Virus genome (UHGV): UHGV-2051569
Length of the DNA: 32,262 nucleotides
Origin: a virus
Strand: one strand, 5' to 3'
A model generated the notes under the pieces. That model was not told the DNA's origin and searched no databases. It was given only the letters and a program-made list of their open reading frames with translations. Within the stretch, counting starts at the first letter, position 1; every line of letters starts with the position of its first letter. This document shows, one piece after another, positions 6,935 through 32,262 of the stretch. Made by a program: the position numbers and the translations under genes.

Positions 6935-7528
6935 CTATTTGTCCCGGTTGGTTAAGGGATGACACAATTTATTCTTTGTCGCTGATGAGGGGAATTTTTT
7001 ATAGAGCGTGGACAGGCCAATATCAAAAATCAGCGCCACACGTTGACGAGATTCCCCCGCAGCCAGCAACCGTCCGACCTGCTCCCACTCACTCGCGGTG
7101 AGTTTCGGACGTCTGCCACCAATACGACCTTTGGCTCTGGCCGCTTCCAGTCCGGCGCGTGTCCGCTCGACAATGAGTTCTCGCTCCATTTCAGCCAGGG
7201 CACCCATCACATGAAAGAAAAAACGCCCCATCGGCGTGCTGGTATCAATAGCATCCGTCAGACTGCGAAAATTAACGCCGCGTTCGCGCAGTTCCTCAAC
7301 CAGAATGACCAGATGCCGCATACTACGCCCCAGCCTGTCCAGCTTCCAGACTACCAGAGTGTCACCTGCTGATAATGTTCTGAGCAGTTTTTTCAGTCCC
7401 GGTCGGTCGGACTTCGTGCCGCTGATTTTATCCTCAAAAATCCGCTCGCATCCTGCGCACTCCAGCACGTTACGCTGCAATTCCGTGTTCTGGTCATTTG
7501 TTGACACGCGTACATAGCCAATAAGCAT
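6935..7528 (-). CDS. Serine-recombinase DNA invertase (Hin/Gin/Cin/Pin family)
   Basis: N-terminus MLIGYVRVSTNDQ...LVVWKLDRLGRS...FFFHVMGALAEMERELIVERT and a C-terminal HTH; near-collinear with Hin/Gin as recalled. Start moved to the internal ATG that has an AGGGGG RBS. Confidence 0.9.
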   Translation of the reverse strand: MLIGYVRVSTNDQNTELQRNVLECAGCERIFEDKISGTKSDRPGLKKLLRTLSAGDTLVVWKLDRLGRSMRHLVILVEELRERGVNFRSLTDAIDTSTPMGRFFFHVMGALAEMERELIVERTRAGLEAARAKGRIGGRRPKLTASEWEQVGRLLAAGESRQRVALIFDIGLSTLYKKFPSSATKNKLCHPLTNRDK

Positions 7529-7555
7529 GAGCATCCCCCTGAATAAAAACCGGAG

Positions 7556-8077
7556 ATGATGCCAGTTGCCCGTTATCTCTGCATTTTCATAAACGTTGGT
7601 TTGGGAGAAGGCTCTGCATTACCTGTTGGTGTGCCTGTTCCATGGCCTTCAGCCACACCGCCAACAGGCTGGCTGAAATGCAACGGTGCGGCTTTTTCTG
7701 CTGAAGAATACCCGGAACTGGCAAAGGCTTATCCGACAAATAAATTACCTGATTTACGCGGTGAGTTTATTCGTGGCTGGGATGACGGGCGCGGTATTGA
7801 TGCAGGACGTGTTTTATTGAGTATTCAGGCAGGAATGCTGGAAAAACACCGTCATATTGTTGTTGCCAATGATGGTTACGACACGAAAGATGAATGGGAA
7901 CTGGCTACGATTTTCAAAAAAACATACACACAAGGGCGAGGACTTGATGCCACAAATACAGGAGGGAGCCTAATCCCATCACCGACACTTCATTCACGAG
8001 GGAGTATCGGTAATACTGGCGGGAGTGAAACCCGTCCACGAAATATTGCATTTAACTTTATCGTGAGGGCTGCATAA
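7556..8077 (+). CDS. Alternative promoterless tail-fibre C-terminal domain, fused to H only after inversion
   Basis: The ORF crosses the left crossover site at codons ~10-18 (INVGLGEGS, compared with [10 protein letters not shown]); inversion would join the H constant region to GSALPVGVPVPWP... Confidence 0.65.
   Translation: MMPVARYLCIFINVGLGEGSALPVGVPVPWPSATPPTGWLKCNGAAFSAEEYPELAKAYPTNKLPDLRGEFIRGWDDGRGIDAGRVLLSIQAGMLEKHRHIVVANDGYDTKDEWELATIFKKTYTQGRGLDATNTGGSLIPSPTLHSRGSIGNTGGSETRPRNIAFNFIVRAA
7584..7609. repeat. Left crossover site (hix/gix-like)
   Basis: ttttcataaacgttggtttgggagaa; its reverse complement ttctcccaaaccaacgtttatgaaaa matches the right site and resembles hix (AAACCAAGGTTTTT core) as recalled. 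Confidence 0.7.
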
Positions 8078-8679
8078 TGGATAACGCCGTATTAAATAGC
8101 GAGCTTATTGCCACGAAGGCGGGGAATATTACCGTCTATAACTATGATGGTGAAACTCGGGAATATATTTCCACTTCAAATGAATATCTTGCCATTGGTG
8201 TCGGTATCCCGGCATATTCCTGTTTAGATGCTCCTGGTACACATAAGGCTGGTTATGCTATCTGCCGTTCGATGGATTTAAACTCATGGGAATATGTGCC
8301 AGACCATCGCGGTGAAATCGTCTATAACACCGAAACGGGAGATGCCAAAGAAATCACAGCACCGGGTGATTACCCCGAAAATACAACCACTATCGCCCCA
8401 TTAACGCCATACGATAAATGGGATGGTGAGAAATGGGTGACCGATACTGAGGCACAGCATAGCGCCGCAGTAGACGCGGCAGAAGCACAGCGTCAGTCAC
8501 TGATTGATACTGCAATGGCCTCCATCAGTCTGATTCAGCTGAAATTGCAGGCCGGGCGGAAGCTGACGCAGGCAGAAACCACCCGACTTAACGCTGTGCT
8601 GGATTACATTGACGCGGTGACGGCAACAGATACCAGCACCGCGCCGGATGTCATCTGGCCTGAACTGCCGGAGGCGTAG
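8077..8679 (+). CDS. Alternative tail-fibre assembly chaperone (inverted-orientation partner)
   Basis: 200-aa ORF whose C-terminus (...LDYIDAVTATDTSTAPDVIWPELPEA) parallels the minus-strand chaperone C-terminus (...LDYLDALELVDTSGAPDIEWPTPPA); the two genes converge and overlap at their 3' ends. Confidence 0.75.
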   Translation: MDNAVLNSELIATKAGNITVYNYDGETREYISTSNEYLAIGVGIPAYSCLDAPGTHKAGYAICRSMDLNSWEYVPDHRGEIVYNTETGDAKEITAPGDYPENTTTIAPLTPYDKWDGEKWVTDTEAQHSAAVDAAEAQRQSLIDTAMASISLIQLKLQAGRKLTQAETTRLNAVLDYIDAVTATDTSTAPDVIWPELPEA

Positions 8680-9091
8680 GCCATTCAATATCTGGCGCAC
8701 CGGAAGTATCGACCAGTTCCAGTGCGTCCAGGTAATCCAGCCACAAATTATATTGCGCCAGTTCGTCACCTTTCAGACGACCAATAGCCGCTTTACCAGG
8801 CCATTGTTTACTGTTCATATAATCGTTGGCCTGATTAATCAATTGCTGCTTCTCCAATTCGGCTGCAGCAATTTGTTCCTCATGTGTTGGTGGTGGAATT
8901 TCGGACCATGCAGGAAAACCATTTTCTCCAGCGATACGGATTTTTCCTTTCGGCGGTAATCCGGAAAACTCAATATACACTTGCTCATCAACTTCAACAG
9001 CATCATCTGGCCATGAGTCAGCTTGAGTGTAATCCTCTTTCATCTCCAGCGGATAGAAAGAGTTTGTAGTCGCGGAATATATGTAATTCAT
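8651..9091 (-). CDS. Tail-fibre assembly chaperone (gpG/U-like), currently expressed orientation
   Basis: 146-aa ORF directly downstream of H on the same strand, with the conserved C-terminal chaperone motif. Confidence 0.8.
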   Translation of the reverse strand: MNYIYSATTNSFYPLEMKEDYTQADSWPDDAVEVDEQVYIEFSGLPPKGKIRIAGENGFPAWSEIPPPTHEEQIAAAELEKQQLINQANDYMNSKQWPGKAAIGRLKGDELAQYNLWLDYLDALELVDTSGAPDIEWPTPPAVQAR

Positions 9092-9112
9092 TTTTCACTC
9101 CATATAGCTAAA

Positions 9113-10072
9113 TTAACAGCCTAACGCTAAAAATGAAGCGCCGAGGCCAGGAGTACTGGCTCTGGATATAAATTTAACCGGGTCGGGACTAAAACCTGCA
9201 CAGGCAATATAACCAACAGCCCCGCTATCTGGTGTGTAGTCTTGTGAGACCAAAACACGCAGACATCTGTTTGGAAATGCAATCGGGAAATGGGTTACTA
9301 CATCCTGTGCAATGCCTGGTGCGCCGATTGAGCCCCACTGAAGAATAAAACCTGATGGTAATTTTTGATATCCAGTACCTGAAACAGAAAGCGTGAAGCT
9401 ACCCATATCAGGTATCTGATTCGCCCCTGTCCCTACATTCCTTTTAGCCGCTTCTCCCAAACCAAGGTTTTTAAGAACGTCGCCGGCCAGTCCCGCGTCA
9501 ACCATTTCTTTCAGAGCATTAGCGATTAACGGGTACTGCTTGTGTGGATTGGCGGCCTCAACATGTTTTTTCATCAGGTCATCAGCATATCCTTTCACCT
9601 CGATAATCTTGTCGTCGACATACTGGCGCGTTGCCAGCACGACTGCCGGGTCGATTTTCAGGGTGATTGCCGATGTGCTCGACACAATCAGAATCATGCG
9701 AATGGTCTGCGTGCGACCGCTTCCCTCCTGCAGTTGTGGCTTGTAGGTCTCCGGACAGTTCGCCACGGCAATCAGAATACCATCATCGTCATAGAGACCA
9801 ATCTCGCGGATCCAGAAACCACCTTCATTCTCGGGAATAATCTGTTCCGCGATAATCTGACTGGTATTGGCCGGGTCAACGGTCAGCAGGTTCAGCGGCG
9901 CGATGCGTTTCTGGTTAATGAGCTTCGTCTGCGCCGGGTCAGGGGTCGGCAACGTACCATTCGCATCACCGACGGCCATCTGCGTCAGGTTGAGTTTGGT
10001 ACCGAGTGCCGCCGCGTTCGCCAGCCGCGCCGCGCCCTGATTGGTCAGAATGGCAAAATATTTTGCGGTCAT
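9113..10072 (-). CDS. H: Tail fibre protein (P2 gpH-like), constant N-terminus plus currently in-frame variable C-terminus
   Basis: N-terminal motifs shared with P2 H as recalled (MAVGD, IAVAN...YKP...EGSGR...IVSS...YVDDKI); the C-terminal ~110 aa lie inside the invertible segment. Confidence 0.85.
9452..9477. repeat. Right crossover site (hix/gix-like) inside the H coding sequence
   Basis: ttctcccaaaccaaggtttttaagaa; encodes ...LKNLGLGE at the junction between the constant and variable parts of H. Confidence 0.7.
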
Positions 10073-12564: not shown

Positions 12565-12701
12565 GAACAAAGAATGCCGATTGTTAAAGCCAAGAGCAAA
12601 ACGATTCAGCTGTATGCTCTTCTACACAATTCGGTGTGCATTCATGTATCATTTGAGTGTTGACTCATTCGAAAATCACACAAAACATATGGCAGGTAGT
12701 A

Positions 12702-13538
12702 ATGAAAAGAACTTCATCTTTTAGGCGTACAATAAGCAATATGAAATATATTATAGGTATCTTTTTTTTATACTCCGGGCTTATAGTAGGGTTGTCTGTT
12801 TATAATGATAACTACAACTCAAAATTCATGGAGAATTTTCTTGTTAATGCAAATTCTTCAATTTTAGATTTTCTTGTTTTGGGTGTGATTCTTTACTATT
12901 TTGAAAATAAAAGGCAAAATAAAGATGCTATTCACGAACTAATTGAAGATCTTGAAAATCTGGCAAAGCATTCTTCTGCAGAACTGAATATTATGAAGAT
13001 AAAAATCATACGTCAGTTAAATGCTAAAGGAATATATAACATTCAAGTTCCAAGGATTGAACTTGATAAAATGTCCACTATCAAATATTTACATTTTAAA
13101 GACGCTGACTTAACCGGCTTGAATATGAGCGAATCATACATTAGAGATTGTTCTTTCGATAATTGCACAATTCAAGCTCTAAATATTACAGGCAATAGAG
13201 TTAAGAGTGTTAAATTCAAAAACTGCAAGCTAAGAAATATTAAGGCATTTAATACATGTTTTCAAAATGTCACTTTCGAAAACTGCAGTTTTGAAGGGGG
13301 GTATTTTACAGATAGCGAAATGAAAAGCTGCATATTAAAAGGATGTGATTTTAAATCCGTTACTTATGAAGGGGCTAACATGCGGAATGCAAATCTATTA
13401 AATTCAATTAACATTAACGTTAAAGAACTTGTTAAAGCAAAAAACATAGATTATTTAATTTGTGATGAGCAAATTAAAAATGAAATAAGAAAGGAAAACC
13501 CAGCAATAAAAATATCGAGAGGAATAATACGAGGTTAG
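12702..13538 (+). CDS. Cargo (moron) gene: membrane-anchored pentapeptide-repeat protein, function unknown
   Basis: AT-rich ORF antisense to the flanking late genes. It has two N-terminal hydrophobic helices (YIIGIFFLYSGLIVGLSVY, ILDFLVLGVILYYF) and about 20 consecutive 5-residue repeats with a hydrophobic fifth position (KDADL TGLNM SESYI RDCSF DNCTI ...). Start chosen at MKRTSS with a weak AGGT RBS. Confidence 0.6.
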   Translation: MKRTSSFRRTISNMKYIIGIFFLYSGLIVGLSVYNDNYNSKFMENFLVNANSSILDFLVLGVILYYFENKRQNKDAIHELIEDLENLAKHSSAELNIMKIKIIRQLNAKGIYNIQVPRIELDKMSTIKYLHFKDADLTGLNMSESYIRDCSFDNCTIQALNITGNRVKSVKFKNCKLRNIKAFNTCFQNVTFENCSFEGGYFTDSEMKSCILKGCDFKSVTYEGANMRNANLLNSININVKELVKAKNIDYLICDEQIKNEIRKENPAIKISRGIIRG

Positions 13539-22464: not shown

Positions 22465-23469
22465 ATGGGCGCGGAGATTAATATTTTGGAAACTGATTTT
22501 AAAATAACCCTCGAAGGTTTCGCTACTGAGCAAGAAGCAAATAATATCGGTAATTTCACACTAGAAGCTATCCGAGCTTTAACAAAAAATCTCAATCTTG
22601 ATATCTCCAAATTAAAATGCGTGATTGTTTCCTATAACTTCAGTGAAGCTCTTCAAAAGGTAACATCCTCTTACCAACACAAATCCCCTAGTTCATTTAC
22701 CAATAGCAAACAGGGCGCAGCCGTCGGGCAGTTAGTAACAAAAATTGGCAATGATGGGCTATGTGAAGAATATACCCTTGTGCTATCGATTGATTTTTTT
22801 GTTGAGCTTTTCAATGATGGTAGCTTCTTAAAACTGAAAGAAGAAGGATACCTCGCAGTCATCCATCGCATTCACCATGAATTAGTGCACGTACATGAAA
22901 AAAACTTACTAACATGCTTAGCCCAAAACTTTACAGTCAACGAGTATGGTAGCGCGCTTCTTATCTCAGCCACGCGTGCGTGGTCTGAATATCTCGCTAA
23001 TTACATGTCTTCGGGGTCTGCCCCTCAAGAAACTATCGATTTATTTTTAGAGAATCTTGACACTGTTGTAAATGAAGTATCTGACGAGATTGAAAAACTC
23101 ATCTGGGGTTATAAGTACGGTAATATTTCTCTGAATGACATGTATCTCGAAGTAAAAAAACGTATCAGGCTAATCATCAACTCTTATGCTTATGCGATGG
23201 GTTATGTCCATTCTCTAAACATCAATATTAAAGAATACGATCCAAAGCTATCCCTTACACTATCCAACTCAAAGATAAGATATCAATTATCAGAATTAGG
23301 CATTGCTTTTCAGAATCTTTATGGGAAGTTTAATGACCAGCACATTACAGGTTTTGGTGATTTTCGGGAGATAACAATAATCATTGATGAAATATTCAAG
23401 CAGTTTGGGCTTGTTTTAGAGTGTCCCGATTGGTCTGGCGACGGTGAACTCTACATACATGTAAATTAG
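22465..23469 (+). CDS. Cargo gene between portal and cos: hypothetical protein with an HExxH motif (possible metallopeptidase-like)
   Basis: 334-aa AT-rich ORF containing ...AVIHRIHHELVHVHEKN...; no obvious RBS; located between the Q stop and the cos-like site. Confidence 0.55.
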   Translation: MGAEINILETDFKITLEGFATEQEANNIGNFTLEAIRALTKNLNLDISKLKCVIVSYNFSEALQKVTSSYQHKSPSSFTNSKQGAAVGQLVTKIGNDGLCEEYTLVLSIDFFVELFNDGSFLKLKEEGYLAVIHRIHHELVHVHEKNLLTCLAQNFTVNEYGSALLISATRAWSEYLANYMSSGSAPQETIDLFLENLDTVVNEVSDEIEKLIWGYKYGNISLNDMYLEVKKRIRLIINSYAYAMGYVHSLNINIKEYDPKLSLTLSNSKIRYQLSELGIAFQNLYGKFNDQHITGFGDFREITIIIDEIFKQFGLVLECPDWSGDGELYIHVN

Positions 23470-23852: not shown

Positions 23853-24569
23853 TTATCGAACCCTTTTTTCCAGATTGAGTAGGGCTTTTTTGCATTTTTT
23901 TTGATTAATAAACGTTCTATCCAGTATCTTTATATGAAACATCATTACTCTATTGAAGCAAATAAACATTTCTCGGGCATCCTGGCCAACAATCAGAAAC
24001 GACTCGCCATTAATATTTGGAATGTTGCTATTCTTCGATAAATCATCAAATGCCTCAGAGCCACGTTCATTTCTATACATTTCTTTAATAGCCATTACTT
24101 CATCGTGGCGAACGATATTAATCCAAATTAATTTATCTACAGTCAACAATTGCCCATACTCTAAGAAAAATACTCCCTTGGCTAACCAGGTGCCGTATTG
24201 GTAAATCTCCCTACCATTTAGGGGTAATGTTATCTGCGCACCTTTTTTTGTATGCCTAACACTCTGGAATGCTTCACGAAATTTCGAGTCTTTTCTTTTA
24301 AGCGCATTATGGAATTTATTAACAGCATCAAAGCTGCCTGTTGAGTGCTCTCCTACCATGCGGCAAATGACACCTAACACCTCGTCAATTCGGCTTTTAT
24401 CGCCATTGCACTTTTTGCATACATAGAAATCACCTTCGCCGTTGGTTCTATGAATGGAGACTGAAACTTGCGGAATCATGTGTTCAACTGAGCGGCAGTG
24501 GGGGTGATTTTCAACCTTATTCATGAGAACACCGCAATAAACGCAGTGTGTGCTTGGTTTCATATACAT
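23853..24569 (-). CDS. Cargo gene: HNH (His-Me finger) nuclease-domain protein with an uncharacterised C-terminal domain
   Basis: N-terminal CVYCG ... VEHMIPQ ... N ... CKKCNGDKS fits the Cys4 plus catalytic His/Asn HNH pattern; AT-rich; start uncertain (24644, 24569 or 24563; a weak AAGGG RBS precedes the inner ATGs). Confidence 0.6.
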   Translation of the reverse strand: MYMKPSTHCVYCGVLMNKVENHPHCRSVEHMIPQVSVSIHRTNGEGDFYVCKKCNGDKSRIDEVLGVICRMVGEHSTGSFDAVNKFHNALKRKDSKFREAFQSVRHTKKGAQITLPLNGREIYQYGTWLAKGVFFLEYGQLLTVDKLIWINIVRHDEVMAIKEMYRNERGSEAFDDLSKNSNIPNINGESFLIVGQDAREMFICFNRVMMFHIKILDRTFINQKKCKKALLNLEKRVR

Positions 24570-24665
24570 TGCCCTTACAATGTCTAATGACGAATGAGTA
24601 GCACTAAAATAACACAAATCTGATGGTGGGATGTCAGCCCCCATGCTTTAGATTGGACATACGAA

Positions 24666-25113: not shown

Positions 25114-25185
25114 AACTAACGCCTCTCGGAGCCAGTTTCAACCCCGCCAGCACTGAAAGCAAGATTCAGCACCGACGGCGTTTGT
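25114..25185. repeat. ~70-bp imperfect direct repeat, copy B
   Basis: actaacgcctctcggagccagtttcaaccccgccagcactgaaagcaagattcagcaccgacggcgtttg lies immediately 3' of the DinI-like gene stop. Confidence 0.55.
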
Positions 25186-25418
25186 TAATGCAGCCAGCTA
25201 TCGTCCTCCCATACCTGCTGCATGATTTCCATTACTCGTTTTTTATCTTCGTCCAGTTTCAAACCGCTTAACTCAACGCCATTAGCTGAGCCCTTACGAA
25301 TGCGGATAGCAGTCTTTGGGTAAATAGGTTGAAGATTGCGGTACAGCTCAGCCTCAAGTGCATCCAACGTTGCCTGACTAATTTTTTGCTCTTTATCCAA
25401 CGTGATATTGATTCTCAT
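25185..25418 (-). CDS. DinI-like protein (Tum-like antirepressor domain)
   Basis: 77-aa MRINITLDKEQKISQATLDALEAELYRNLQ...EDKKRVMEIMQQVWEDDSWLH aligns along its length with E. coli DinI as recalled; sits downstream of the LexA box. Confidence 0.8.
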   Translation of the reverse strand: MRINITLDKEQKISQATLDALEAELYRNLQPIYPKTAIRIRKGSANGVELSGLKLDEDKKRVMEIMQQVWEDDSWLH

Positions 25419-25421
25419 AAT

Positions 25422-25604
25422 CTAATCAGCCTTATAAAAATTATCATCTTCGGTTTCGTTATTTTCGCTGTTTGCTAGGTCTGCAATGAGAGTGAGCGCG
25501 AGCTTTAAGTCTGATGGCTTGCAGTTTGCAATCAGAGATACCTCGGCAATAAATTGCACACAAGCCCACTTTTGCTGCGTTCGGCTGAAATGTTCGCCAA
25601 CCAT
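25422..25604 (-). CDS. Small acidic protein, first gene after the LexA box; possibly the N-terminal part of an interrupted tum-like gene
   Basis: 60-aa ORF with a GGGAGGG RBS; it ends in TAG, followed by ATT and then the in-frame ATG of the DinI-like ORF. Confidence 0.5.
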   Translation of the reverse strand: MVGEHFSRTQQKWACVQFIAEVSLIANCKPSDLKLALTLIADLANSENNETEDDNFYKAD

Positions 25605-25624
25605 GAAATCCCTCCCATAGGGTT

Positions 25625-25642
25625 ACTGTATATTTATACAGT
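25625..25642 (-). promoter_or_regulatory. LexA (SOS) box overlapping the promoter of the tum-like operon
   Basis: tACTGTATATTTATACAGTa, a near-perfect CTGT-N8-ACAG palindrome about 20 bp upstream of the 60-aa ORF start. Confidence 0.75.
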
Positions 25643-25717
25643 AGCACGTATTGGCAAAAGATGGGAAGAAAAAAAACGAATAGAGCGATTGCTGTATGTG
25701 CATGATATGGATATGAA

Positions 25718-28967: not shown

Positions 28968-29477
28968 TCAAATCAGACCAAACGATGCGCCAATACCGCT
29001 CATGGTATCGACCACGCTCGACATAGCTGGATTAGTCTGCAGACGTGCATGCAGCGCCAGAGCCGACAATGACAACATGCGAATGCCGGAGTTAACGCTT
29101 TCAATCATGTTGTGCTTACGGGCAGTGGTCAGACGTTCATCAGATACCGCGCCGCTCGCCAGTTCGCCGAGTTCACGCATTGCGCGCATGACATAAGACT
29201 GCAATTTGTCTTTAGCCAACTCATTAACCGGCACGCATGGTAGGCAGTGAATCTGCGCTAAAAAACCATCAATGAGGGTTGAGTCTTCGGTCAGGTCAGT
29301 CAGCAGCCACAATTCAGGCGGCGTGAACTGGTGAGGCTGTTCCGGGTTGAGCTTGTTACGTAACGTTTGAACGTTCATACCTGCACGCTCGGCCAGCTTC
29401 GCCATGTTGTGACGCTGTGCGAAAATGCGGCATGCTTCGTCATAGTGGGGATGTTTGGAAACCTGAAAATCAAACAT
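28968..29477 (-). CDS. cII: CII-like transcriptional activator of lysogeny (phage 186 type)
   Basis: 169-aa product MFDFQVSKHPHYDEACRIFAQRHNMAKLAERAGMNVQTLRNKL... with an HTH, matching 186 CII as recalled; GAGGGA RBS before the internal ATG. Confidence 0.75.
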   Translation of the reverse strand: MFDFQVSKHPHYDEACRIFAQRHNMAKLAERAGMNVQTLRNKLNPEQPHQFTPPELWLLTDLTEDSTLIDGFLAQIHCLPCVPVNELAKDKLQSYVMRAMRELGELASGAVSDERLTTARKHNMIESVNSGIRMLSLSALALHARLQTNPAMSSVVDTMSGIGASFGLI

Positions 29478-29509
29478 GGTTAAATTCCCTCTAACTTGCA
29501 TAATCAAAT

Positions 29510-29881
29510 TCAGTTAAGAGCGGTGCGCTGGTCGATGTAGCGACAATCAATCGCTTGTTGAGTCAGCTTATCGCGCCATGCTTTTACATTTACGAGGGTT
29601 CGGCTTCGTTTAGCAGCTTCCTCTTTGTTGGAAAAGTCTTTGGTCGGAGCTTTGAGAAGGACTCCCTCATCGAGCCATTGCCAGACCAGACGCTCGCTAA
29701 CACCGCGAGTAGCGGCGAAGTCTTTCACAGTCATCGTGTCTGACATAGCGGAGCGAATCATTGTCTGTAGAGCTGGCAGCATGGCGGTAACGATGGCATC
29801 AAACTGTGTTGGATCTAGCAGCACAGTTTGATTTTGTGAGTTTTGCGAGTCGTGCGTCGAGATTGATTTTGCATCTGACAT
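29510..29881 (-). CDS. apl: Apl-like excisionase/repressor (HTH) with an N-terminal extension of uncertain reality
   Basis: C-terminal ~80 aa (MSDTMTVKDFAATRGVSERLVWQWLDEGVL...) is a typical Apl/Cox-type HTH; the track ORF adds ~45 aa upstream and its ATG has an AGGAG RBS. Confidence 0.65.
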   Translation of the reverse strand: MSDAKSISTHDSQNSQNQTVLLDPTQFDAIVTAMLPALQTMIRSAMSDTMTVKDFAATRGVSERLVWQWLDEGVLLKAPTKDFSNKEEAAKRSRTLVNVKAWRDKLTQQAIDCRYIDQRTALN

Positions 29882-29994
29882 ATCGCATTATCTCCTGTTG
29901 TTTGAAATGTAGTGCAGTGGTGTGCATCTTGGTCGGTGAGCACCAATATAGATCGCTAAATTTTGGTTGTAAACAAAATTATTGTTGGTGTCAT

Positions 29995-30840
29995 ATGTCT
30001 AAAAATGATGTTAATGCGTCTGCCGCATTGGAACGTGTCCTTTCTGCATACGGCTTTAAGCAGCAAAAGGAACTAGCCGAAAGGCTTGGCATACATGCAA
30101 ACAACGTGAGTAGCTGGCTTGCTAGAAACGTAATCCCTAGCAACGTTTTCGTTGAGTGTGCTCTTGATACTGGAGCTGACCTGCGATGGCTAATTAATGG
30201 TGAGCTTGCAAATGCAAGATTTGAAGTGGTGAAAACTAAGCTTAAAGGTAAGCAACTCTATGATGAAATCATGGCAAATGGAGGGAGGGCGGTTCTGCGT
30301 CGGATTCTCGATGCGTATGGTTTTACTCTGCAAAAAGAGCTTGGAGATTTATTAGGTATATCTTCCGGCACTATAAGCACTTGGGTTAGACGCGATTTTT
30401 TCCCCGGTGACGTGGTTGTCACTTGCGCCCTTGATACTGGCGTATCGTTAGAATGGTTATCAACCGGAAAAGGCCAGATGCGTAACAGTAATGATGGTGA
30501 ACCGGCAAATGCTTTAACGATTAGAAAGTGCCGCCTCGAGGCTGGCGAACTCAAAGATATCGGACGCTGGACTCCTGATATATCTATGGTTCCATCAAAT
30601 ACTGATGATTTAGTGTTTATTGATGGTGTGAGCACATCTTGGCTTGTTGATAGTTCTAACTCGAAGATAGGAAATGGTCGCTGGCTTATTGGTATTGATG
30701 GCGCACTCGATGTTTTTGACGTAATCAGGTTGCCAGGCGGAAAGGTCAGGTTATCAAATAAGTCTGCTGAGTTTGAATGTAATATTTCAGATATCACACC
30801 ATCAGGTGCGGTTATTTTTACTTTGGAAAAGCATGTTTAA
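29995..30840 (+). CDS. cI: CI-like immunity repressor with a tandemly duplicated HTH domain
   Basis: Divergent from apl/cII and upstream of int; two paralogous ~60-aa segments (ERVLSAYGFKQQKELAERLGIHANNVSSWL...CALDTGADLRWL and RRILDAYGFTLQKELGDLLGISSGTISTWV...CALDTGVSLEWL); start at ATG 29995. Confidence 0.75.
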   Translation: MSKNDVNASAALERVLSAYGFKQQKELAERLGIHANNVSSWLARNVIPSNVFVECALDTGADLRWLINGELANARFEVVKTKLKGKQLYDEIMANGGRAVLRRILDAYGFTLQKELGDLLGISSGTISTWVRRDFFPGDVVVTCALDTGVSLEWLSTGKGQMRNSNDGEPANALTIRKCRLEAGELKDIGRWTPDISMVPSNTDDLVFIDGVSTSWLVDSSNSKIGNGRWLIGIDGALDVFDVIRLPGGKVRLSNKSAEFECNISDITPSGAVIFTLEKHV

Positions 30841-30849
30841 GGAGCAGTA

Positions 30850-31188
30850 ATGAAAAAGTTTATATTTGCGATAGTCTGCATTGCACTTTCTTCCTCAGCC
30901 ATAGCCGCTGAGAAGTTTAAAGAGATAGACGGCGCTGCATATGGTGACAAGTGGCCTCTAACCTTTGAAAAGGCAAAGGTATCATGTGTTAACCGTGCTT
31001 ATGCTTTTGTGTATGACATCAAAACTGATGATAGATATCCTCTGAATGGCATGGCGGTAGATGCTGTTAAATCAGGAAAGCTGGAGGGGTCTAACTTAGA
31101 TGACGTATGGAAGGATGACCCTGAGTATGACGGCGTTAAAATTTCAATTTCACCGGTGATTGATGCCGCTACAGCCCTTTGTAATTAA
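30850..31188 (+). CDS. Secreted (signal-peptide) small protein between cI and int; candidate lysogenic-conversion gene
   Basis: AAGGAG RBS 7 nt upstream; N-terminus MKKFIFAIVCIALSSSAIA|AEK is a Sec signal peptide; mature part ~90 aa. Confidence 0.6.
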   Translation: MKKFIFAIVCIALSSSAIAAEKFKEIDGAAYGDKWPLTFEKAKVSCVNRAYAFVYDIKTDDRYPLNGMAVDAVKSGKLEGSNLDDVWKDDPEYDGVKISISPVIDAATALCN

Positions 31189-31212: not shown

Positions 31213-32262
31213 ATGACTGTAAGTAAACAAAAAAGTGGAAAATGGTTGTGTGAACTCTATCCAAATGGTCGAGAAGGGCGGCGTATACGTCGGCAGTTCA
31301 ATACCAAAGGTGAGGCCGAGGCATTTGAAGCATTTACCAAAAGCGAGAGTGAAGATAAGCCGTGGCTCGGCAAGAAAGAAGACCGCCGACGCTTAAGCGA
31401 GATTATTCAGCTTTGGCACAATTTGCACGGTCAAGCGTTAGTCGCCAGTAAGTCGAGGTTTGCAAAGCTTCAAATCGTATGTAATGGACTTGGCGACCCG
31501 ATTGCATCTCGCCTTACCGCGAAAGACTGGGCTCATTATCGTGACCGTCGATTACGTGGTGAAATAGACAATGGTTATCATAAAGACCCCTCGAAATGGA
31601 TCGCCAAACCTATAACCGTCAATCGCGAACAACAATACCTAGAAGCAGTGTTTAATGAGCTCCGCCGGTTAGGGGAGTGGAGCCTACCCAATCCACTTGA
31701 TGGGATCCGAGTATTCAAAGAAGCTGAGAAAGAAATGTCCTGGCTAACTTTGTCTCAGCTCCCGGAGCTGTTTCGAGCCTGCGAGCAATACGGCAAAGAA
31801 GACCTCACCATGATTGTTAAGGTGTGCCTTGCAACCGGCGCTCGATGGGGGGAAGCAGAGAGATTGACCCGACCTCAACTTTCTCCATATAAACTAACGT
31901 TCACCAAAACCAAAGGTAAGAAGAATCGCACAGTTCCTATTCCTAAATGGCTGTACGACGAGTTGTCCGTACGTCAAGGCAGAATGTTTAAACCCTGCTA
32001 TCAGGAGTTTAAAAAGATGCTCAAACTAACGAATATTGAATTGACGGAAGGGCAGAAGACGCACGTTTTGCGTCATACTTTTGGTGCGCATTTTATGATG
32101 AACGGAGGGAATATACTGGTGCTGCAGAAAATTCTCGGACATGCCAATATTCGAGAAACAATGAAGTATGCGCACTTTGCTCCTGACCACCTTGAACAAG
32201 CTGTAACCCTCAATCCGTTATCGCTGTATGTTGGCGACAATGTGGCGGCAGAGGTTGCATAA
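31213..32262 (+). CDS. int: Tyrosine integrase (P2/186 family)
   Basis: 349-aa ORF with the C-terminal R...HxxR...Y catalytic region (HVLRHTFGAHFMMNGGNILVLQKILGHANIRETMKYAHF); its stop is at the window end. Confidence 0.9.
   Translation: MTVSKQKSGKWLCELYPNGREGRRIRRQFNTKGEAEAFEAFTKSESEDKPWLGKKEDRRRLSEIIQLWHNLHGQALVASKSRFAKLQIVCNGLGDPIASRLTAKDWAHYRDRRLRGEIDNGYHKDPSKWIAKPITVNREQQYLEAVFNELRRLGEWSLPNPLDGIRVFKEAEKEMSWLTLSQLPELFRACEQYGKEDLTMIVKVCLATGARWGEAERLTRPQLSPYKLTFTKTKGKKNRTVPIPKWLYDELSVRQGRMFKPCYQEFKKMLKLTNIELTEGQKTHVLRHTFGAHFMMNGGNILVLQKILGHANIRETMKYAHFAPDHLEQAVTLNPLSLYVGDNVAAEVA

Follow-up and report, generated by a model that had tools for sequence, protein, structure and literature searches.

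How are two DNA-binding heads put to use in a single phage repressor? The question is raised by the cI gene (positions 29995-30840, + strand) of the virus genome UHGV-2051569, the whole stretch of which, at 32,262 nucleotides, was analysed here and is called the window. The gene encodes a protein of 281 amino acids (aa) that is the immunity repressor of a 186/PSP3-like (Eganvirus) Escherichia coli prophage, and this protein carries two helix-turn-helix (HTH) domains in tandem where CI of coliphage 186 has one. Phage 186 CI is the textbook alternative to lambda for a bistable switch, which it achieves via DNA wrapping and looping, and it presents a puzzle in that a single HTH domain reportedly reads two unrelated types of site. 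Our comparative analysis gives about even odds (a probability near 0.5) to a division of labour, wherein the first N-terminal domain (NTD1) would set immunity at the lytic promoter pR and the second (NTD2) would read conserved flanking sites.

Two paralogous heads on a 186-type repressor

A Pfam scan of the protein identifies Phage_CI_repr (PF07022) twice and Phage_CI_C (PF16452) once (69 bits). When the halves are run separately against PF07022, for which the cut-off is 22 bits, aa 10-70 score 68.1 bits and aa 99-163 score 98.4 bits, so that the similarity of the second segment to an HTH domain is not a matter of chance. From its start the protein comprises NTD1 (aa 8-69; 30016-30201), a variable HTH domain whose recognition helix lies at about aa 35-44 (ANNVSSWLAR); an inter-domain linker (aa 70-95; 30202-30279); NTD2 (aa 96-160; 30280-30474), a near-invariant HTH domain with the recognition helix SSGTISTWVRR; and a 186-type oligomerisation domain at the C terminus (CTD; aa 176-281; 30520-30837), all encoded on the + strand. 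The two heads are 43% identical (E=1e-23) and share the end motif CALDTG(A/V)(D/S)L(R/E)WL, with NTD1 retaining the full family signature, including the S-x-W-x-x-R pattern of its recognition helix. Their codon-aligned DNA is 52.5% identical overall and only 31% identical at third positions, which is near random, and the duplication therefore is old and no assembly artefact. An earlier note on this DNA, made from the letters alone, had described a repressor longer than the ~190 aa of 186 CI (192 aa in fact), with two paralogous segments ending in the CALDTG motif and an old duplication behind them; the alignments confirm each of these points, and its identity as an immunity repressor is supported.

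Only aa 100-274, corresponding to NTD2 plus the CTD, can be aligned with 186 CI, so that the single 186 head (to which the two heads are ~30% identical) has its counterpart by position in NTD2, and NTD1 is the addition. Likewise, when 1.84 billion representative proteins were searched exhaustively, the relatives of ~190 aa cover residues 95-280 of the query, and about ten 50%-identity clusters of 285-294 aa align from end to end. The CTD model matches the 186 CI C-terminal domain (2fkd_A; 186 CI structures are PDB 2FJR and 2FKD) with a template modelling (TM) score of 0.90 and 1.7 Å over 109 columns. Unlike the autocleaving repressors LexA and lambda CI, the protein has no recognizable S24 peptidase domain among 21 Pfam hits at E<=0.1, and its resemblance to LexA is a distant one at the level of the fold (E ~1e-5), as is also the case for the CTD of 186.

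The tandem architecture is shared with phages such as PSP3, SW9 and Midge, and over 100 protein clusters have it. The window CI is 91.5% identical to those of Salmonella phages SW9 and SI22, 73% identical to that of PSP3 (AAN08403.1) and 67% identical to those of Escherichia phage Midge and Klebsiella phage RCIP0057; across these phages and SEN1 the architecture is shared at 67-92% identity, along with the same palindromes (see below) and the neighbouring gp30-type apl, cII, DUF2511 and int genes. PSP3 and Midge belong to other NTD1 classes, while the window belongs to that of SW9. Alignments of 47 and 129 sequences define a PSP3-type subgroup of 276-289 aa, and the window protein has its order of parts: a variable NTD1, a linker with the GELANA/CTTGCA palindrome, NTD2 with SSGTISTWVRR, and the CTD. 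Repressors of this type are common in Enterobacterales, where they are annotated merely as “CI”, and of 5,426 complete E. coli genomes, 15 contain the immunity region at >=99% identity, under the label “phage repressor protein CI”. A full-text literature search found no description of the tandem-HTH architecture of PSP3-type CI, and the sole comparative paper found describes PsP3 CI as having ‘a longer C-terminal domain’ than 186 CI (PMC3448106).

Could only the second head be made? A start at Met93 would yield a 189-aa protein of the size of 186 CI with a single HTH domain, and the 281-aa reading would then be a mis-annotation. This is very improbable, given how NTD1 evolves: between the window and SW9 its proportions of synonymous (pS) and nonsynonymous (pN) differences are 0.59 and 0.02, and the ratio of the corresponding rates (dN/dS) within the class is ~0.02. 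Met93 is not conserved, being Leu in Midge-type proteins, and more than 100 clusters at 90% identity have a common length of 276-289 aa. A putative Shine-Dalgarno sequence, GGTG (29987-29990, + strand), precedes the ATG at 29995, and TGGTG recurs 5-9 nucleotides (nt) upstream of the ATG in most related loci whatever their operator class. TTGGTG/CACCAA repeats near the cI start were also tried as half-sites of one operator class (class A) and rejected, as TGGTG precedes the ATG in almost every class and fits this ribosome-binding motif best.

The two heads have evolved in strikingly different ways. In a set of 129 homologues whose retrieval did not depend on either head, pairwise identity averages 0.91 for NTD2, 0.60 for NTD1 and 0.69 for the CTD, and for the recognition helices the values are 0.95 (NTD2) and 0.57 (NTD1), the latter falling into at least five classes. 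Among distant relatives, represented by 50%-identity clusters, the corresponding means are 0.69, 0.44 and 0.31. A recent recombinational sweep does not explain the constancy of NTD2, because its synonymous sites are saturated: comparisons across NTD1 classes, or with a diverged locus (L032), give pS of 0.67-0.85 with pN of 0.04-0.14, indicating that NTD2 is under purifying selection.

A neighbour-joining tree of the heads, built without support values, separates all the PSP3-type NTD1s from all the NTD2s, each set having its own clade. The two heads of the 313-aa CI of Klebsiella phage 4LV2017 (P0138) are instead each other's closest relatives, and those of P0180, P0193 and P0194 (315-358 aa) form a separate clade of their own, so that by this tree heads have been duplicated independently at least three times in this family. 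Like the window CI, these longer proteins place two PF07022-type heads before a 186-type CTD. The NTD2 clade also holds the single-domain proteins P0132 and P0135; single-domain forms may be ancestral-like or may be secondary losses, and this nesting is compatible with loss.

Putative conserved and class-specific operators

Within linker codons E70-R75 lies a perfect palindrome, CTTGCAAATGCAAG (30205-30218), which is the sole match, and an exact one, when up to two mismatches are allowed across the 32-kb window. We regard it as a putative intragenic CI operator for NTD2. A second site of the same family, AACTTGCATAATCAAATT (29493-29510), is located between the apl stop and the cII start. Conserved sites of this family have the form CTTGCA-N2-TGCAAG. 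By position these two putative sites resemble the flanking CI sites of 186, FL inside cI and FR at the apl/cII junction, although their sequences differ from the ATTCAC-N5-GTGAAT of FL and FR. The CI sites of 186 are divided into an A type and a B type.

Palindromes were counted in 63 tandem loci with up to two mismatches allowed, in zones defined relative to the start of NTD2. At the linker position, an interval of 50 bp, 37 of the 63 loci carry the palindrome when about 0.1 would be expected by chance, and 33 carry a family site, of the form AACTTGCA(A/T)AATCAAGTT, in the apl/cII-junction zone, where about one is expected. The rest of these loci yields 11 matches against ~11 expected, which is background. 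A third copy is found in PSP3, SW9 and Midge, where it precedes pag/ogr by 47-60 bp and so occupies the place of the CI-repressed promoter pB of 186.

The palindrome in the linker is constrained beyond the needs of its codons. Synonymous positions within it are frozen, with Leu encoded by CTT in 20 of 21 cases, Ala by GCA in 26 of 26, Asn by AAT in 24 of 24 and the second Ala by GCA in 19 of 23, whereas for Ala, Leu, Gly and Thr only a few residues away every synonymous codon is found. Moreover, in Midge-type and ‘STAT’-type genes the palindrome lies 11 nt further on in another reading frame, where it encodes the peptides NLNLQD and NSHLQ rather than ELANA. Its retention in a different frame argues for selection at the level of the DNA rather than of the peptide. 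The palindrome also co-occurs with several unrelated types of apl/cox gene, leaving CI as its only common partner. Variants of the NTD2 helix (STAT, APGT) and variants of the palindrome showed no clear pattern of covariation.

Single-domain relatives point to where this operator-like DNA may have come from. In 17 of 18 such relatives, found in Rahnella, Ewingella, Chimaeribacter and others and having a head of the NTD2 type only, CTTGCAttTGCAAG is located 74-75 nt before the codon aligned with G96. These proteins (for example P0132, loci L069-L085) have the SSGTISTWVRR head and the same CTD as the tandem repressors but lack NTD1, and their palindrome is a putative pR-spacer operator instead of coding sequence; in L073, for example, it lies exactly in the spacer of a TTGACA-17-TAGATT lytic promoter. 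Tandem genes have the palindrome at the same place, -75 nt from the NTD2 codons (variants range from -64 to -96), and in an alignment their linker DNA corresponds to the 5′ region and the initial codons in the single-domain relatives. The shared offset suggests that the duplicated unit extended from the operator through the head, a span of ~267 nt that equals the 89-aa register between the heads. Deletion of NTD1 between two operator copies, giving rise to the single-domain forms, is a possible alternative direction of change. In the independently duplicated repressor gene of 4LV2017 (L005), TTCAC motifs that resemble the 186 FL/FR half-site are found in the upstream region and in linker-coding DNA, but the motifs in the linker are too weak to be claimed as a parallel case of an intragenic operator.

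The putative operators at pR vary with NTD1 class. As in 186, cI leads a lysogenic operon with int, and pR, apl and cII face the opposite way, with putative CI sites over pR. In the window an intergenic region of 113 bp separates cI from the apl/cox-like gene (29510-29881, − strand), which encodes a 123-aa protein of the PSP3 gp30 type that is near-identical to Midge ‘Cox’, annotated as excisionase-like. The strong pR-like promoter (29945-29973, − strand; TTTACA at 29973-29968, a 17-nt spacer and TATATT at 29950-29945) scores 10/12 in a promoter scan, occupies the position of 186 pR and reads into the apl-like gene. Facing it is a weaker candidate pL (29863-29891, + strand; TTGATT-17 nt-CATTAT), read by eye at 8/12 of the consensus and placed as is 186 pL, which is annotated as TTGCGA-17-CATGAT.

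A putative class-specific operator region spans 29951-29994. It contains an inverted repeat, AATTTTGGTT/AAACAAAATT (29959-29968/29971-29980), that is centred on the -35 element of pR, and an ATCGC element (29952-29956) adjoining the -10. The region, with both of these features, is conserved in SW9, L009 and L032, all of the NTD1 class of the window, while other classes differ. Of the intergenic DNA, the half next to apl hardly differs among the window, PSP3, SW9 and Midge, and the half next to cI, which runs from the -10 up to the start of cI, changes with NTD1 class while NTD2 stays identical. The earlier note had suggested that a tandem repressor may define a distinct immunity specificity, and this finds support insofar as NTD1 varies in step with the operator region. 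Short k-mer matches between the operator region and CTD-coding DNA (30617 in the window; 3187 in Midge) were dismissed as chance, given that their positions differ between phages.

Between pR and the candidate pL are two direct repeats of GTGCA (29912-29916 and 29922-29926), 10 bp apart. They were considered as a conserved NTD2 site and rejected, because loci with another apl/cox gene and the same NTD2 have GTGTT-type repeats in place of GTGCA-N5-GTGCA (29912-29926). This covariation with apl/cox type rather than with CI, and a location like that of the seven Apl sites between the promoters of 186, identify them as putative sites for the Apl-like protein. The apl-like protein of the window is of the Midge type and that of SW9 matches PSP3's, with no correspondence to CI class, which argues that a mosaic boundary lies inside the intergenic region. 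The loci are mosaic: the window joins a Midge-type apl-like gene to NTD1 and operators of the SW9 type, while SW9 and PSP3 share apl and differ in NTD1. Comparison of the window (29510-29994) with L001-L003 places the boundaries of exchange within the 113-bp region as well as around the linker palindrome.

Across the 63 tandem loci, the pR spacer and the sequence just beyond it contain a unit of 12-15 bp, often with a second unit ~21 bp, or two helical turns, away. Two-turn phasing of the pR sites of 186, and binding of its CI at pB, have been described (PMC3675496). The unit is palindromic in many classes, with a half-site that differs between NTD1 classes, both halves changing together. Examples are TCGCA-N2/3-TGCGA with helix ..NNISSW.QR, found alike in Kosakonia and Serratia loci; CCGCA-N3-TGCGG with helix STVSNWVSR; ATCCA..TGGAT (L059); ATACA..TGTAT (L050); and ACACG..CGTGT in Dickeya loci. 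NTD2 is the same across all of these half-site classes, making NTD1 the obvious reader of the pR operators, and the symmetry of the palindromes implies two identical heads per site.

The window also has an SOS module (25185-25643, − strand), recognized by a scan for LexA boxes, by Pfam and by homology. A LexA box with no mismatch to the consensus, TACTGTATATTTATACAGTA (25624-25643), precedes tumA (25422-25604; 60 aa, annotated TumA in PSP3) and the DinI-like tumB (25185-25418), whose product has an 84-bit match to the DinI family and is 47% identical to aa 71-145 of 186 Tum. The annotated 186 record has Tum as a LexA-repressed inhibitor of CI DNA binding, and the window module, read from its genes, looks like a split version of the p95-tum induction module of 186. 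The likeness does not extend to TumA, for which no similarity to the Tum N terminus was found. TumA is 98-100% identical in exactly the 10 phage records with tandem CI, which together cover three NTD1 classes, and the remainder of the 50,697 phage records lack it. An antirepressor that is conserved requires a target that is conserved too, and this may be NTD2, where CI is conserved most.

Which head reads which site

The class-specific operators could be explained in another way, namely that NTD1 and NTD2 of one chain or dimer jointly read each pR operator, the conserved ATCG.. half being bound by NTD2 and the variable half by NTD1, which predicts operators that are asymmetric or directly repeated. 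The Midge-type unit, ATCGA-N3-TGAGT, is indeed asymmetric and repeated directly at a spacing of 21 bp, and most NTD1 classes retain ATCG(C/A) beside the -10 of pR, also in loci whose left flanks differ. Many classes, however, have a symmetric pR palindrome whose halves change together (TCGCA..TGCGA, CCGCA..TGCGG, ATACA..TGTAT), the NTD2-type palindrome exists elsewhere as a complete symmetric site, and the oligomerisation domain is kept, all of which make joint reading of each operator unlikely. The proposal of the earlier note that a single chain takes the place of a dimer is not supported either, considering that oligomerisation domain, linkers that are modelled as flexible and the palindromic pR operators of many relatives. 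Its suggestion to look for direct-repeat rather than palindromic operators succeeds for the Midge-type unit and not for the many classes with palindromes at pR.

An even less probable view is that only NTD2 binds DNA, with dual specificity, and that NTD1 is accessory as a modulator, decoy or interaction module. NTD2 is the positional homologue of the 186 head, the HTH domain of 186 CI reportedly binds two types of site (Shearwin et al. 2002, a paper cited in PMC3675496), and in Franconibacter helveticus (L086) the same helix occurs beside a different pR palindrome. On this view it is hard to see why NTD1 would keep a full family signature (68 bits) with the S-x-W-x-x-R pattern and be under strong purifying selection within classes, or why pR operators should differ among phages with identical NTD2. 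To a similarly small degree we credit the idea that NTD2 is conserved mainly as a protein surface, either for TumA or for oligomer packing, with little DNA recognition, the palindromes then being bound by another factor or having some other role, for example as a recombination junction between modules. The near invariance of TumA and its exact co-occurrence with tandem CI accord with this, as do the inhibition of CI DNA binding ascribed to Tum in the 186 record and the module boundaries near palindrome sites. Yet single-domain relatives that have only the NTD2-type head carry the palindrome in the pR spacer, the canonical position for a repressor site, and CI is the sole partner common to palindromes found with several unrelated apl/cox types.

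Several observations weigh against the division of labour itself. NTD1 and the pR operators are physically adjacent, and their covariation might reflect linkage or modular exchange instead of recognition. The pR operator of the window has no clean short palindrome, and the recurrence of the ATCG element beside the -10 in most NTD1 classes would also fit a contact of NTD2 with pR. The FR-like site of the window has three mismatches to the ideal palindrome, and no site of this family is found upstream of the window ogr even at three mismatches. The single-domain repressor of L086 has an NTD2-type helix but ACCTC-N7-GAGGT in its pR spacer, suggesting that a head of this type may be dual in its specificity, which is also reported of 186 CI. 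Because peptide patterns from NTD2 were used to retrieve the 80 genome loci, these overstate the conservation of that domain; the conservation figures quoted above come from other sets. Both linkers of the AlphaFold2 monomer model (aa 72-84 and 165-172) have per-residue confidence (pLDDT) below 50, and the predicted TM score (pTM) is 0.41, so that packing of the two heads together is unsupported and inter-domain geometry, being uninformative, was dropped as evidence of their arrangement. Architecture, conservation asymmetry, palindrome positions and selection on the palindromes were computed directly; we infer the assignment of heads to sites, oligomerisation, looping and the target of TumA, and all operator assignments are comparative. 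As a separate observation on L086, its locus retains a AACTTGCATAATCAAGCT site 389 nt upstream.

With these reservations, the division of labour can be set out as follows. The repressor keeps the 186 design, with the same type of CTD and the first position in a cI-orf-int lysogenic operon whose candidate promoter faces pR-apl-cII. Its HTH head was duplicated long ago, apparently in a unit running from the ancestral operator through the head, such that the former operator and 5′ region became the linker, and the two heads would since have split the work. NTD1 would read immunity-specific operators overlapping the -10 and -35 of pR and thereby define heteroimmunity. NTD2, joined directly to the CTD like the single head of 186, would read CTTGCA-N2-TGCAAG family sites, of which an FL-like one lies inside cI, an FR-like one lies at the apl/cII junction and, in the case of PSP3, SW9 and Midge, a pB-like one lies upstream of pag/ogr. 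Such flanking sites would allow looping or wrapping in the style of 186, whose CI forms a 14-mer wheel, plus auxiliary repression.

A fuller version of this scheme is more tentative than the division of labour alone. It holds that a head was duplicated together with its own operator, that the DNA thus read through serves as a linker and is still an intragenic operator, that the fast-evolving head sets immunity at pR, and that the frozen head covers functions common to all heteroimmune relatives, acting at flanking or looping sites, repressing the late activator and being recognized by the shared TumA antirepressor. Such a two-reader repressor, if real, would resolve by natural means a dual specificity for which 186 CI relies on a single head.

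The prophage around cI and the meaning of two heads

The gene order of the region, common to the window and its relatives, is fil, cII, the PSP3-gp30-type apl/cox gene, cI, a DUF2511 gene and int. As expected for a 186-type repressor, cI lies upstream of int and opposite both an apl/cox-like gene and a CP76-type cII (28968-29477, − strand; PF06892, 158.6 bits), with fil also present. The cII start at 29477 gives a protein of 169 aa, as in PSP3. Between cI and int the DUF2511 gene (30850-31188, + strand) encodes a protein with a signal peptide (MKKFIFAIVCIALSSSAIA), and occupies the same spot in PSP3, SW9 and Midge. This location implies that it is presumably co-transcribed with the repressor in lysogens, and it is likely a lysogenic-conversion gene. 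Among the related loci, that of Enterobacter sp. EA-1 (L045, CP025776.1) has an NTD2 recognition helix that reads ‘QK-ISVICWISRPGPSAWVRR’, which looks like a local frameshift through the HTH domain in a decaying prophage repressor or a sequencing error.

Other parts of the window carry further features, among them possible cargo. A resolvase/invertase gene (6935-7534, − strand) adjoins tail-collar and tail-fibre-assembly genes (7556-8679, + strand), with a bracketing pair of 27-nt inverted repeats (7584-7610 and 9451-9477; 85% complementary). The region from 6935 to 9477 looks like a Gin/Cin-type invertible tail-fibre, or host-range, segment in a P2/186-like prophage. Inside the tail/baseplate block, on the opposite strand, is a gene for a 293-aa pentapeptide-repeat protein (12657-13538, + strand) with weak N-terminal PADLOC matches (E ~6e-5) to the SLATT domains that accompany DRT reverse transcriptases; this gene is possibly a moron or cargo for defence. 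Two cargo open reading frames (22465-23469, + strand, 334 aa; 23853-24644, − strand, 263 aa) match no Pfam family. The product of the latter has Cys-rich HNH-like motifs and weak PADLOC matches to PtuB (E ~7e-5), and together the two may form an anti-phage system at a P2-like hotspot. The integrase gene (31213-32262) closes the window, its stop codon being the very end of the stretch, and at the other end, in the interval 273-572, is an Ogr/Delta zinc-finger gene (273-491, − strand) with an upstream region unlike those of PSP3, SW9 and Midge. The whole looks like an excised prophage interval.

Other proteins are known in which two linked HTH units read two DNA elements, including engineered single-chain 434 repressors, MarA/AraC and POU domains, all unrelated in sequence to CI. 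To our knowledge, none of these is a natural wheel-type phage immunity repressor. The asymmetry of the two heads and the operator-like palindrome in the linker codons go beyond what the earlier note had recognized, as does the finding that the architecture is already common in databases. The tandem form thus is known from databases but undescribed, and what is new is the comparative evidence, drawn from sequence, that appears to support an intragenic operator and a specialisation of heads.

A widespread natural relative of 186 CI therefore appears to divide the two-site task between two heads. An operator within coding sequence, with frozen synonymous sites, places protein-level and DNA-level constraints on the same nucleotides, and the linker palindrome of cI would exemplify the recruitment of regulatory DNA as a protein linker. 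If the division of labour is correct, then swapping domains should change the immunity of the repressor and leave looping and induction as they are, and tandem repressors could supply orthogonal repressor/operator pairs for synthetic circuits. It would also explain how heteroimmune P2/186-like prophages could diversify while sharing one antirepressor, with cross-induction among them as a possible consequence.

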